Source of the DNA: Candidatus Aldehydirespiratoraceae bacterium
GTDB lineage: Bacteria > Actinomycetota > Acidimicrobiia > Acidimicrobiales > Aldehydirespiratoraceae
Reading direction: 5' to 3'
Assembly: GCA_965204595.1 (NCBI GenBank)
Contig: CBDBEW010000005.1
Location: forward strand, 614,565 to 678,564
Length of the DNA stretch: 64,000 bases
In this document: positions 59,420 through 64,000 of the stretch, piece after piece
Layout of the letters: each line of letters opens with the position of its first letter
How positions within the stretch are numbered: the stretch's first letter is position 1
Made by a program: the position numbers and the translations under genes
The notes under the pieces: generated by a model
Seen by the model: the letters and a program-made list of their open reading frames with translations, nothing else
The model's database searches: none
What the model was told of the DNA's origin: nothing

Positions 59420-59720
59420 GTCGGTTATCTCGCCTCAATAATGACTCTGTCTTGCAAAATAATGACGTTGTCTTCCAGCGTTTTCCAGAATTTGTTGGTT
59501 TTTTTGGGTAAGGGTGGGTGCCAGGGTAGGTCTGGGATGTTGGTGTTGGGGTCAGGGCAGGTTCCGTCGTTGTCTTGGAGGTCGTTGGTGTCGCCGTCGC
59601 CGTTTACGTCGTGGGTGAAGCAGTGGCGATGCGGGGTTGTTGCCGCTTTGCCGCTGCTGTCTTTGTAGACATGCAAGAATTCGGCTCCATGGGCGTGAAA
59701 GCTTCCATGGTGGAGGTCTC
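59414..59720 (-). repeat. cassette junction/A-domain DNA repeat, copy a
   Basis: Near-identical by eye to 63690..64000. Shared strings include gtcatgtcggttatctcgcctcaataatgac and ttttccagaatttgttggtt..gggtaagggtgggtgccagggtaggtctgggatgttggtgt. Confidence 0.85.
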
Positions 59721-59892
59721 TAATCATGGCGTCGGTTAAATTGGTGGGTAGCCCACGAATCTGCACCATCCACGTCAACAAGACACCAAGCACAAGACCA
59801 AAAACCAAGCCAACACAAGAATATTTGAACAGTTGAGTTTCGGTGAAGCGTTTTCGTTCGTCGTGTTGTTCGCGGGTTGCCATGTCGGTCAT
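59425..59892 (-). CDS. cassette chimera: B-type N-terminus/TM helix fused to the A-type Cys/His/Asp-rich domain
   Basis: 155 aa. MTDMATREQHDE..VGLVFGLVLGVLLTWMVQIRG parallels the N-terminus of 60089..60508. LTDAMIRDLHHGSFHAHGAEFLHVYKDSSGKAATTPHRHCFTHDVNGDGDTNDLQDNDGTCPDPNTNIPDLPWHPPLPKKTNKFWKTLEDN..EAR then parallels the other A copies. Confidence 0.6.
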   Translation of the reverse strand: MTDMATREQHDERKRFTETQLFKYSCVGLVFGLVLGVLLTWMVQIRGLPTNLTDAMIRDLHHGSFHAHGAEFLHVYKDSSGKAATTPHRHCFTHDVNGDGDTNDLQDNDGTCPDPNTNIPDLPWHPPLPKKTNKFWKTLEDNVIILQDRVIIEAR

Positions 59893-60010
59893 CTCGCCTC
59901 TTTTTTCTCACAGTAGTGGATGATGTGTTTGGTGTTTTCCAGTGTTTGCCAGAATTTGTTGTTTTTTTGGGTAAGGGTGGGTGCCATGGGTAGGTCTGGG
60001 ATGTTGGTGT
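59880..60010 (-). repeat. cassette junction DNA repeat, copy b (short, more diverged)
   Basis: catgtcggtcatctcgcctc ... ccagaatttgttgtttttttgggtaagggtgggtgccatgggtaggtctgggatgttggtgt. Confidence 0.8.
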
Positions 60011-60074
60011 CAGGGTCGGGGCAGGTTCCGGTCTTCCTCAGTCGAGCGGTGCTAGTTTCCGGTTCTTCACTCAT
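59889..60074 (-). CDS. mini A-type cassette ORF (61 aa)
   Basis: MSEEPETSTARLRKTGTCPDPDTNIPDLPMAPTLTQKNNKFWQTLENTKHIIHYCEKKEAR. The stop overlaps the next start (ATGA). A homologous start (MNEEPASSAARPRKT..) follows the other B gene at 63300 but is truncated there. Confidence 0.35.
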   Translation of the reverse strand: MSEEPETSTARLRKTGTCPDPDTNIPDLPMAPTLTQKNNKFWQTLENTKHIIHYCEKKEAR

Positions 60075-60088
60075 CAACAAATTCTCTG

Positions 60089-60508
60089 CTACATCCGCCG
60101 CAACAGACTGTGGATCTCTGCTACATCCTCTCCAGCAGACTGTGGAGACGAGTTTGCTGGTTTCTCTGCTATAACGCTCTCTTCCGCGTCCCCAGCCGGT
60201 GTCGACGAATCGGTCCAATCAGAAAGCCGCTGGTCGGTGGCTTCTGTCGATGCGCCGTCGCTGTGCCGTCGGGAAAGCCACTTCGCACCGAAATTAGATT
60301 CAGAAGCGGCAACACCGATAGTGCTACCAACAGCAGCCGGCAGAATCATCAGCAATGTGGCAACCACTCCACGAGTATGCACCATCCACGTACACATGGC
60401 ACCAAGTGCAAATCCCAGCACTATGGCAACGATCAAGCATATGGTCAGATGAGTTTTGGTAACCCATTGGTGTTCGTCGTGTTCGTCGCGGGTTGCCATG
60501 TCGGTCAT
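60089..60508 (-). CDS. B-type cassette protein (small 2-TM protein with an acidic C-terminal tail)
   Basis: 139 aa from ATG 60508, which overlaps the upstream stop as ATGA. It has two hydrophobic helices and the tail ..DWTDSSTPAGDAEESVIAEKPANSSPQSA, paralogous to 63314..63697. Confidence 0.6.
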   Translation of the reverse strand: MTDMATRDEHDEHQWVTKTHLTICLIVAIVLGFALGAMCTWMVHTRGVVATLLMILPAAVGSTIGVAASESNFGAKWLSRRHSDGASTEATDQRLSDWTDSSTPAGDAEESVIAEKPANSSPQSAGEDVAEIHSLLRRM

Positions 60509-61521
60509 CTCGCCTCTATTTTCTTGCAGTAGTGGATGATGTGTTTGTAGACGACTGCGTAGTCTTGCGTTTGTTTGGTTTCGGTGATAACGTGTTGGCG
60601 TGTTGCCCAGCGGTCCGACCGCCAACGGTTGCCTTGGGGCGGATTCAGGCAACCCGTGTGCCCGGCGATAGTGATCACAGGCCCGTCGTCTCCTCTCGAC
60701 GAAAGGATAACCGCGGCAATAACACTAACTGCGAAACCGGCAAAACCCACCGCGCCACTCCTAAAGGATCTGGACGCGCGGGCGAGTCTCTTGAGTGCTG
60801 CGTTGGTAGCCGCACCTGCGGCAGGGCCGGCGCTTGTAGTAATGACGGTGTTTTCTAGTGTTTGCCAGAATTTGTCGGTTTTGTTGGGTAAGGGTGGGTG
60901 CCAGGGTAGGTCTGGGATGTTGGTGTTGGGACCGGGGCAGGCTCCGTCGTTGCCTTGGGGGTCGTTGGTGTCGCCGTCGCCGTTTACGTCGTGGGTGGCG
61001 CAGTGACGGTGCGGGTTTGTTGTTGCTTTGCCGCTGCTGTTTTTGTGGACATGCCAAAAGTCGGCTCCGTGGGCGTTGTTGCTTGCGTGGCTGAGGTCTC
61101 CGATCATGGCGTCGGTGAGGGCGATGTTCAACGGTTCTGTCCATGCGAACGTACACGTTCGGGTATGTCCCCCAACAGTTTTGGGTATGCTCGCCGTGCA
61201 GTTGTGAGCGCCTGAGTTCATCGTGGCCTCATCGGTGACAAGCCTGACAAGATTCGGGTTGAACCAACGCGTGGTCGTGTCGACTGGGTCTTTCCCAAGA
61301 CGTCCGTTGGGACTGCGCCAAGCCTCACCATCGGCCGGGTTAGCTGGATCAAGCCCATCACAGGTGACGGTGTCTGTTTCGGCATAAGTCACCCAGCCTG
61401 TTTTGTGGCTAGCGGTGACTGTGACTTGGTATTGTTGTCCGAACTCGGCGGGGTAGACCTCGGTGTTGTTGATGCTATGACGCACGATTATCTTTGTGTC
61501 CCCAGTTTTGCCGATACGCAA
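60505..61521 (-). CDS. 5'-truncated FN3-stem + A-type domain + inserted TM segment (orphan cassette)
   Basis: Homology to 62049..63050 starts mid-domain (..GTGLIPVRYTLRIGKTGDT..YPAEFGQQYQVTVTASHKTGWVTY) directly after an in-frame TGA at 61567..61569. There is no ATG or SD, and the listed start is TTG. It continues into the A domain, a 100-aa insertion (60547..60846) with a TM helix, and the shared tail KHIIHYCKKIEAR. Confidence 0.5.
   Translation of the reverse strand: MRIGKTGDTKIIVRHSINNTEVYPAEFGQQYQVTVTASHKTGWVTYAETDTVTCDGLDPANPADGEAWRSPNGRLGKDPVDTTTRWFNPNLVRLVTDEATMNSGAHNCTASIPKTVGGHTRTCTFAWTEPLNIALTDAMIGDLSHASNNAHGADFWHVHKNSSGKATTNPHRHCATHDVNGDGDTNDPQGNDGACPGPNTNIPDLPWHPPLPNKTDKFWQTLENTVITTSAGPAAGAATNAALKRLARASRSFRSGAVGFAGFAVSVIAAVILSSRGDDGPVITIAGHTGCLNPPQGNRWRSDRWATRQHVITETKQTQDYAVVYKHIIHYCKKIEAR
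60847..61130 (-). repeat. A-domain DNA repeat, copy c (its junction part sits at 60497..60546, separated by a 300-nt insertion)
   Basis: ccagaatttgtcggttttgttgggtaagggtgggtgccagggtaggtctgggatgttggtgttggg... through ..gtctccgatcatggcgtcggtgagg. Confidence 0.8.
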
Positions 61522-63697: not shown

Positions 63698-64000
63698 GTC
63701 GGTTATCTCGCCTCAATAATGACTTTGTCTTCCAGAATAATGACGTTGTCTTCCAATGTTTTCCAGAATTTGTTGGTTTTGTTGGGTAAGGGTGGGTGCC
63801 AGGGTAGGTCTGGGATGTTGGTGTCAGGGTCGGGGCAGGTTCCGTCGTTGTCTTGGAGGTCGTTGGTGTCACCGTCGCCGTTCACGTCGTGGGTGAAGCA
63901 GTGCCGATGCGGGGTTGTTGCCGCTTTGCCGCTGCTGTTTTCATAAACATGCAAGAATTCGGCTCCGTGGGCGTAAAGGCTTCCATGGTCGAGATCTCTA
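63690..64000 (-). repeat. cassette junction/A-domain DNA repeat, copy d (runs off the window)
   Basis: See copy a. Confidence 0.85.
63703..64000 (-). CDS. A-type Cys/His/Asp-rich domain protein, 5' end beyond the window
   Basis: The frame is open to the window edge: ..RDLDHGSLYAHGAEFLHVYENSSGKAATTPHRHCFTHDVNGDGDTNDLQDNDGTCPDPDTNIPDLPWHPPLPNKTNKFWKTLEDNVIILEDKVIIEAR. Confidence 0.6.
   Translation of the reverse strand, partial: RDLDHGSLYAHGAEFLHVYENSSGKAATTPHRHCFTHDVNGDGDTNDLQDNDGTCPDPDTNIPDLPWHPPLPNKTNKFWKTLEDNVIILEDKVIIEAR

Follow-up and report, generated by a model that had tools for sequence, protein, structure and literature searches.

The last 4.7 kb of the window, as we call the whole stretch of 64,000 nucleotides under analysis, hold a row of short minus-strand genes, in which a His/Cys domain recurs as three long copies and one decayed fragment, all of them on the minus strand according to the open reading frame (ORF) listing and alignment (Table 1). 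A tblastn search of the whole 3.2-Mb assembly recovered a fourth full copy (copy D) at C5:679061-679342, ~0.5 kb past the window end, and no further copy elsewhere in that assembly; every copy falls within a single 8-kb locus (C5:673992-682273). In the 155-aa ORF 59425-59892 the domain (copy A) reads LTDAMIRDLHHGSFHAHGAEFLHVYKDSSGKAATTPHRHCFTHDVNGDGDTNDLQDNDGTCPDPNTNIPDLPWHPPLPKKTNKFWKTLEDNVIILQDRVIIEAR, with the core motifs H11, H17, H23, H37-R-H-C40, the DVNGDGDT loop, D58-G-T-C61-P, D70-L-P-W73-H74-P and F84-W85. Copies B and C are 77% and 91% identical to it, respectively, and the copies altogether share 77-92% identity in protein and 75-93% in DNA over 300 nt, so that the repeat is real and a chance pattern is excluded. 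Three long copies of one domain, at 59425, 60847 and 63703, had been claimed in the original prediction, and they are confirmed by the ORF listing, the alignment and the identity of DNA and protein alike. The DNA of the domain is, furthermore, the best conserved repeat at the locus.

Table 1. Genes, gene remnants and copies of the His/Cys domain at the end of the window (TM, transmembrane).
Feature	Position	Strand	Description and basis
155-aa gene	59425..59892	minus	Partner-like N-terminal segment, TM helix (residues 25-43), domain, 12-residue module-tail remnant (..VIIEAR)
Copy A of the domain (104 aa, LTDAMI..IIEAR)	59428..59739	minus	Inside 155-aa ORF 59425-59892; alignment
Decayed C-terminal domain fragment	59919..60035	minus	GTCPDPDTNIPDLPMAPTLTQKNNKFWQTLEN fused straight to tail end KHIIHYCEKKEAR; inside 109-aa ORF 59889-60218
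Small two-TM partner gene	60089..60508	minus	Without domain; ORF listing, hydropathy
Headless (orphan) C-terminal cassette, 338 aa	60505..61521	minus	ORF listing, alignment
Copy B of the domain (93-aa core)	60841..61119	minus	Inside 338-aa ORF 60505-61521
Headless FN3 gene, 333 aa	62049..63050	minus	Different C-terminal module without the domain; same cassette array
Small two-TM partner gene, 127 aa	63314..63697	minus	After the second 155-aa gene
Second 155-aa gene, 3' part	63703..64000	minus	TM helix and copy C
Copy C of the domain	63706 to window end	minus	Its ORF continues outside the window

The head of the locus is a 743-aa gene (C5:680045-682273, equal to L001 7478-9709 (-)), whose product has a signal-like N-terminus, repeats and a Thr-rich linker. 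Downstream of it follow, in the order of transcription, a frameshifted headless domain cassette (80 + 237 aa), a 155-aa TM+domain gene (ATGA overlap), the 127-aa two-TM gene, the headless 333-aa FN3 gene with its different tail, the 338-aa headless domain cassette, a two-TM gene, the decayed fragment and the first 155-aa gene; the array includes both broken and headless pieces. The second 155-aa gene extends ~170 nt beyond the window, where it shares an ATGA overlap with the stop of the second orphan cassette (copy D), and the likely start of the partner at 60089..60508 (MTDMATRDEH) overlaps the stop of the 338-aa ORF in the same manner. Within the 338-aa cassette an FN3 remnant is followed by a pre-domain (C..TC.F.WTEP), the His/Cys domain, a hydrophobic segment and a Cys-containing tail (..HIIHYCKKIEAR). 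As for the head gene itself, it was found in 1 of 30 other genomes of the family, it has no Pfam match, and many short repeats of the (R)VPY..Y.V and RTEQRTRTAYR type stand in a long row in its product, encoded by 30/60-nt periodic DNA (repeat family D7), after which the linker is of the poly-Thr/Pro kind.

The complete architecture can be seen in three full-length genes from other loci (L002, L007 and L015). The 1009-aa protein of L002 begins with a signal-like N-terminus, a Pro/Thr linker, Cys/His-rich repeats and FN3 domains, continues with the pre-domain (NP..R.V..E.T...G...C......G..RTC.F.WTEP), the His/Cys domain and the hydrophobic segment, and ends with a two-Cys tail (..I.G..GC..... 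..H.I..C...); a 113-aa two-TM gene comes directly after it, with an ATGA overlap. The 555-aa protein of L015 follows the same plan, and for the 548-aa protein encoded by L007 a lipoprotein-like start is found in a neighbouring frame. Since these relatives share their plan, the 338-aa ORF of the window is read as a headless copy of their tail module. The 155-aa genes and the 109-aa fragment are short forms, devoid of the hydrophobic segment and of most of the tail; as all full-length relatives have the long form, they are read as deletions, the long form not being an insertion. In this sense, the claim that the domain of 59425..59892 sits directly behind a single TM helix was correct but incomplete: one hydrophobic segment does precede it, yet this is a derived small-protein form, the native site in the relatives being the C-terminal module of large FN3 proteins. 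Other modules, without the domain, are found behind the FN3 domains of the 743-aa protein of L001, the 1194-aa protein of L003 and the 333-aa protein of the window; the modules with the His/Cys domain, built as pre-domain, His/Cys domain, hydrophobic or glycine-zipper segment and Cys tail, make up one class among the exchangeable C-terminal ends of Sec-exported FN3 surface proteins. The domain was also considered as an optional insert in a scaffold common to all tail modules; a tail HMM matched the L003 module weakly (E 0.008, small set) and a pre-domain HMM missed the 333-aa module of the window (E 7), so that the domain-bearing module is treated as one of several distinct classes. Separately, the 1009-aa protein (L002 7586-10615 (+)) carries, upstream of its FN3 domains, ~12 Cys/His-rich units (C-H-A-D-H-x-C-x-x-G-x-x-L..H), a further His/Cys repeat which is likewise unassigned and whose sequence is not related to that of the domain described here.

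Conservation was counted over 40 non-identical domain sequences aligned to the family HMM. The His/Arg/Cys block is almost invariant (H11 38/39, H17 39/39, H23 40/40, H37 40/40, R38 39/40, H39 40/40, C40 40/40), as are the second Cys block (D58 39/40, G59 40/40, T60 38/40, C61 40/40, P62 38/38) and the C-terminal block (D70 39/39, W73 38/39, H74 39/39, P78 38/39). The fixed features of the domain are six His, one Arg, one Cys pair, two Asp and a W-H-P..P motif; it opens with F.W.EP, presents D70-L-x-W73-H74-P..P78 toward its C-terminus and closes with F-W. The invariants first noticed among the window copies (H, HG, H, HRHC and THD) mostly survived the alignment of more homologues: the glycine of HG (19/39) and the His of THD (26/36) did not, and the other His/Cys positions did. 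The spacing H-x-H-x-D-H of metallo-beta-lactamase-type sites is absent from the domain, which reads H-R-H-C-x-T-H-D with its third His (H43) in those same 26 of 36 members, and neither a fold nor a profile match supports a site of that type. We rate the chances that the His residues build a metal site as close to even, though slightly below.

Between C40 and C61 lies the acidic loop D44-V-N-G-D-G-D-T-x-D..D-N, nearly invariant where present and single in the copies of the window. It is absent from P0014, P0017/L008 and L007, which read HRHC-x5-8-DGTC and keep the Cys pair (C-x5-8-C), shortened in P0016, and doubled in L004 and P0018, which have exactly four Cys, one pair flanking each loop. 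The number of Cys is always even and tracks the number of loops, as predicted by one disulfide closing each loop. A disulfide between "two remaining" Cys had been anticipated; there are only two conserved Cys, one of them being the C of HRHC, and what stands of the claim is that the pair acts as one unit, in the manner expected of a disulfide, in the loop-less and double-loop members. If engaged in a disulfide, C40 cannot double as a metal ligand. The acidic loop looks like an optional, disulfide-closed insert of the calcium type, and a calcium loop closed in this manner may be considered rather probable.

The kinship of this loop deserves some caution. In the EF-hand/dockerin pattern (PROSITE), the 12-residue loop has a hydrophobic residue at position 8 and Asp/Glu at position 12, and dockerin type I loops begin with DVNGDG, as does the loop of the domain. 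The latter (D-V-N-G-D-G-D-T-N-D-L-Q) has Thr at position 8 and Q/E/G/V/A among members at position 12; it does not fit the pattern, has no Pfam match, and comes without the paired F-hand helix of dockerins and EF-hands. With the thrombospondin type-3 repeats (TSP3; PF02412, and bacterial TSP3, PF18884) it shares a Cys-bracketed D-x-[DN]-x-D-G-D..D..D-N loop beside C-P, a loop number that varies among members (0, 1 or 2) and a probable extracytoplasmic location. On the other hand, a scan of the whole genome with the TSP_3 and TSP3_bac profiles at E<=10 gave no match, most members have a single loop instead of an array, and here it is embedded in a larger His-rich domain which is missing from TSP3 repeats. 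Of the proposed resemblance to EF-hand, dockerin and TSP3 loops, the motif-level likeness is retained, and the unmatched profiles together with positions 8 and 12 speak against more; as far as the sequences tell, it is a lead at the level of the motif, not family membership.

No described family among those searched accommodates the domain, which the original prediction could not place in a known family either. Searches against Pfam at E<=0.1, and with 20 family members at E<=5, returned only fn3 in the upstream parts and none in the domain; NCBIfam, PADLOC and PHROGs gave no domain match above noise; and PDB sequences yielded no meaningful match to the profile, to a 42-residue loop peptide or to a double-loop homologue. 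Structure prediction, suggested earlier as a check, was run with AlphaFold2 and gave low-confidence models: the domain alone, from a 20-row alignment, reached pLDDT 62.7 and was mostly irregular with two short helices, and the whole tail module reached pLDDT 55.7, its best parts being strands before the domain and C-terminal hairpins. Foldseek found no fold match to these models in the PDB (best E 0.46, TM below 0.25). The "unassigned" status of the domain thus holds at the sensitivity of HMMER and Foldseek, and we have very little doubt that it is a real new domain family: a previously undescribed domain of ~100-105 residues, restricted to Acidimicrobiia.

Its distribution is narrow. A word-indexed search of 5.8 billion clusters (~15 billion proteins) retrieved, besides the proteins of the window itself, a single protein of 152 aa, which comes from another sample. 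When 1.84 billion representatives were searched exhaustively with a profile, 18 matches (~16 real) were obtained, and a profile search of 90% clusters gave 26 domain-bearing clusters; those with a source name are "hypothetical protein" entries from Acidimicrobiia or unclassified "bacterium" MAGs. At 90% identity the family comprises ~26 clusters out of 5.8 billion; it is tiny and its reach correspondingly limited. Species-representative genomes contain three domain loci (in a Candidatus Aldehydirespiratoraceae MAG, an Acidimicrobiales MAG and a Sva0996 marine-group MAG), the domain is present in 3 of the 401 genomes of the window's order, and it was found in none of 5 other genomes of the genus and none of 4 other genomes of the family. 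This is the distribution of an accessory, patchy element.

Small membrane genes are recurrent companions of the domain-bearing modules. ATGA-coupled small membrane genes and headless cassettes occur in the window and in L003, and, on a contig from another sample, the module tail is again followed by a small TM+domain gene and then by the start of the partner, in intact order and with open frames. In L015, P0010 (three TM helices and then the domain) comes directly after the 555-aa gene, with whose domain it shares 68% identity over 114 residues and a private TPPKDQ insertion. L005 is syntenic with L002, and its partner gene has the domain in place of the second TM helix, the N- and C-terminal parts being unchanged; the junctions of the chimeras coincide with shared short motifs. 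In a maximum-likelihood tree the domains of small proteins cluster with the large-protein domains of their own lineage (window clade 100/98), and this grouping by lineage indicates repeated origin or homogenisation. Recurrent chimeras could in part be by-products of recombination at the most conserved stretch of DNA.

The two 155-aa paralogues allow selection on the domain to be appraised. Their domains differ by 14 synonymous and 9 non-synonymous changes (dS 0.26, dN 0.038, dN/dS 0.14), and their TM parts by 8.2 synonymous and 22.8 non-synonymous changes (dN/dS 0.85). The domain is under purifying selection and, as both paralogues have the same chimeric architecture, the constraint acted on the small protein itself. 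This result weighs on two alternative explanations. The first takes the domain for a passive structural spacer, and the small TM+domain genes for functionless by-products of cassette recombination, for which the broken and headless pieces of the array, the domain DNA as likely crossover site and the position of the chimera junctions at shared motifs would be natural; we regard it as improbable, since the low dN/dS was found between paralogues which were already chimeric, the architecture is intact in another sample, TM+domain proteins come after domain-bearing modules in other lineages too, and a well-conserved stand-alone clade of two-domain proteins exists (see below). The second regards the copies in the window as dead remains of a locus in decay, with frames left open by chance. 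Headless cassettes, the decayed fragment and the frameshifted copy just outside the window are what such decay would leave; the open frames with their excess of synonymous change, and the presence of the invariant residues in all four full copies, make it highly improbable.

Stand-alone proteins of 346-374 aa are built as TM, domain, TM, linker, TM, domain, TM, and constitute a well-supported clade (98/98, ~ten 90% clusters). Their genes are far from any FN3 gene, which implies that the domain has a role not requiring the large protein in cis. Two of these genes (L013 7139-7801 and L019 11092-12273, from different samples and syntenic) lie beside a PIN toxin with its ParD/RHH antitoxin and SnoaL_4, and another copy (L021) resides in an island with an integrase, defence genes, a ubiquitin-like Bub module, PIN and Fic. 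In P0023 (411 aa) a domain-bearing tail module is joined to a C-terminal membrane part, which matches a 154-aa membrane protein (L013 6487-6951) encoded upstream of a stand-alone gene; this match links the stand-alone loci to former cassette arrays. It might be argued from the His-rich ectodomains between TM helices, and from the conserved chromosomal neighbourhoods without FN3 genes, that metal sensing, buffering or uptake was the primary function, the stand-alone 4-TM form being the original and the FN3 proteins having borrowed the domain later. We hold this to be quite unlikely: no metal homeostasis genes adjoin, the neighbours being PIN/ParD, SnoaL_4 and housekeeping genes, and the extreme patchiness within the order fits accessory conflict genes better.

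The 4-TM proteins are also informative on topology. According to hydropathy and K/R counts, their K/R-rich linker and tail are on one side of the membrane and both domains on the opposite one, which under the positive-inside rule places the domains outside. The large proteins have signal-like N-termini, with the domain downstream of exported FN3 domains, and the 155-aa protein has four K/R before its helix and two after it. From FN3 order, signal-like N-termini and K/R distribution we infer, in agreement with the original prediction, that the domain is probably extracytoplasmic.

Considered as a whole, the explanation that we prefer, tentatively and with somewhat less than even confidence, is that of a metal-stabilised ectodomain for docking or recognition at the membrane surface. 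The two Cys would form a disulfide closing a loop which in most members holds the optional acidic insert of the Ca2+ type (DVNGDGDTxDxxDN); the His residues would form one or two metal sites, holding together a domain poor in secondary structure; and the domain would sit right at the membrane surface, on its outer face. The tail module, which would be membrane-active, and the small membrane protein with the same domain would then make contact through the domain, leading to self-protection or self-recognition, and the entire locus would operate in the manner of polymorphic toxin loci (PMC3482391). In favour of a membrane-active tail are the hydrophobic, glycine-rich segments after the domain, which would act like glycine-zipper toxins that have membrane immunity proteins (PMC10434224, PMC12744356). 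Homotypic docking or immunity, taken separately, is a possibility that we consider doubtful. The unmatched calcium-loop profiles and the loop-less members count against the preferred explanation, as does the finding of ordinary two-TM partners without the domain in L002 and L007, a domain-bearing small gene not being present at every locus.

Orphan C-terminal toxin/immunity cassettes are well described in polymorphic toxin loci, such as cdiA-CT/cdiI and Rhs-CT (Zhang et al. 2012, PMC3482391). The present loci resemble them in having a large repeat protein that is exported and whose conserved upstream part precedes a variable C-terminal module, a small cognate gene directly downstream, often with stop/start overlap, headless spare cassettes, and a patchy phyletic distribution. 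They differ in lacking a recognisable dedicated secretion system, and in that the ectodomain of the module can recur in the small protein encoded downstream. No toxin, pre-toxin or immunity domain was found in the modules and partners with Pfam, NCBIfam and PADLOC, and a literature search for Acidimicrobiia together with polymorphic toxins found no paper. Six invariant His and invariant Asp residues, located in a C-terminal module which is polymorphic and cassette-like and has partner genes as well as orphan copies, are also what would be expected if a toxin had its catalytic centre in the domain, which would then be a metal-dependent hydrolase attacking the envelope of neighbour cells with those His/Asp as active site. 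Retention of every invariant residue in the small downstream proteins and in the stand-alone 4-TM proteins, unexpected for protectors against an enzyme, speaks against a toxic enzyme, as do the missing likeness to any hydrolase family or fold and a low-confidence model nearly without regular secondary structure; we thus attribute a low probability to this alternative.

Membrane-depolarising glycine-zipper toxins with small membrane immunity proteins have been documented in TelE/TipE (PMC10434224) and EsxX (PMC12744356), which share with the domain-bearing modules a C-terminal, hydrophobic, glycine-rich segment and a small membrane protein encoded adjacently. Those proteins, however, are LXG/T7SS substrates of Firmicutes without an ectodomain of the His/Cys kind, whereas the carrier here is a Sec-type FN3 protein of Acidimicrobiia, and in the copies of the window the glycine zipper is weakly developed. 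The most specific form of our reading joins several claims: a new metal-dependent ectodomain fold, and small proteins that protect or identify the producer by binding the identical domain of the membrane-active tail module, be it incoming or resident, i.e., mimicry of the docking domain, serving immunity or kin recognition in a Sec-dependent polymorphic surface-protein system of Acidimicrobiia. As a joint claim this is unlikely to be right in full.

Should the docking and recognition reading be correct, an uncharacterised putative metal-binding ectodomain, with six invariant His and a disulfide-closed acidic loop, would be added to the catalogue, along with a system by which surface proteins of Acidimicrobiia exchange cassettes; this class is poorly studied and mostly known from environmental genomes. 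The recurrence of the domain in the tail of the large protein and in the adjacent small protein would furthermore suggest that partners are matched by a shared domain; we know of no described toxin/immunity pair that matches its partners in this way.

Some further genes around the head of the locus can be mentioned. A tyrosine recombinase adjoins the FN3/cassette locus both in the window's genome (L001 10203-11198 (+), ~0.5 kb from the head gene) and in the Aldehydirespiratoraceae MAG (L002 11879-12904 (-)); the two are 48% identical over 301 residues, and NCBIfam gives weak XerA/integron-integrase matches only. Such a recombinase may mobilise the island or act on the cassettes. At L001 12235-14405 (+) there is an FG-GAP/VCBS-like repeat protein with C-terminal SLH-type repeats, apparently split into ORFs of 195 and 525 aa, which has D-[VI]-[DN]-G-D-G loops followed by hydrophobic strands, unlike the loop of the His/Cys domain. 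Finally, a 731-aa AAA-type protein and a 373-aa protein are encoded one after the other at L001 14964-18277 (+), a few kb past the recombinase that flanks the head gene, in an order reminiscent of McrBC-type restriction.
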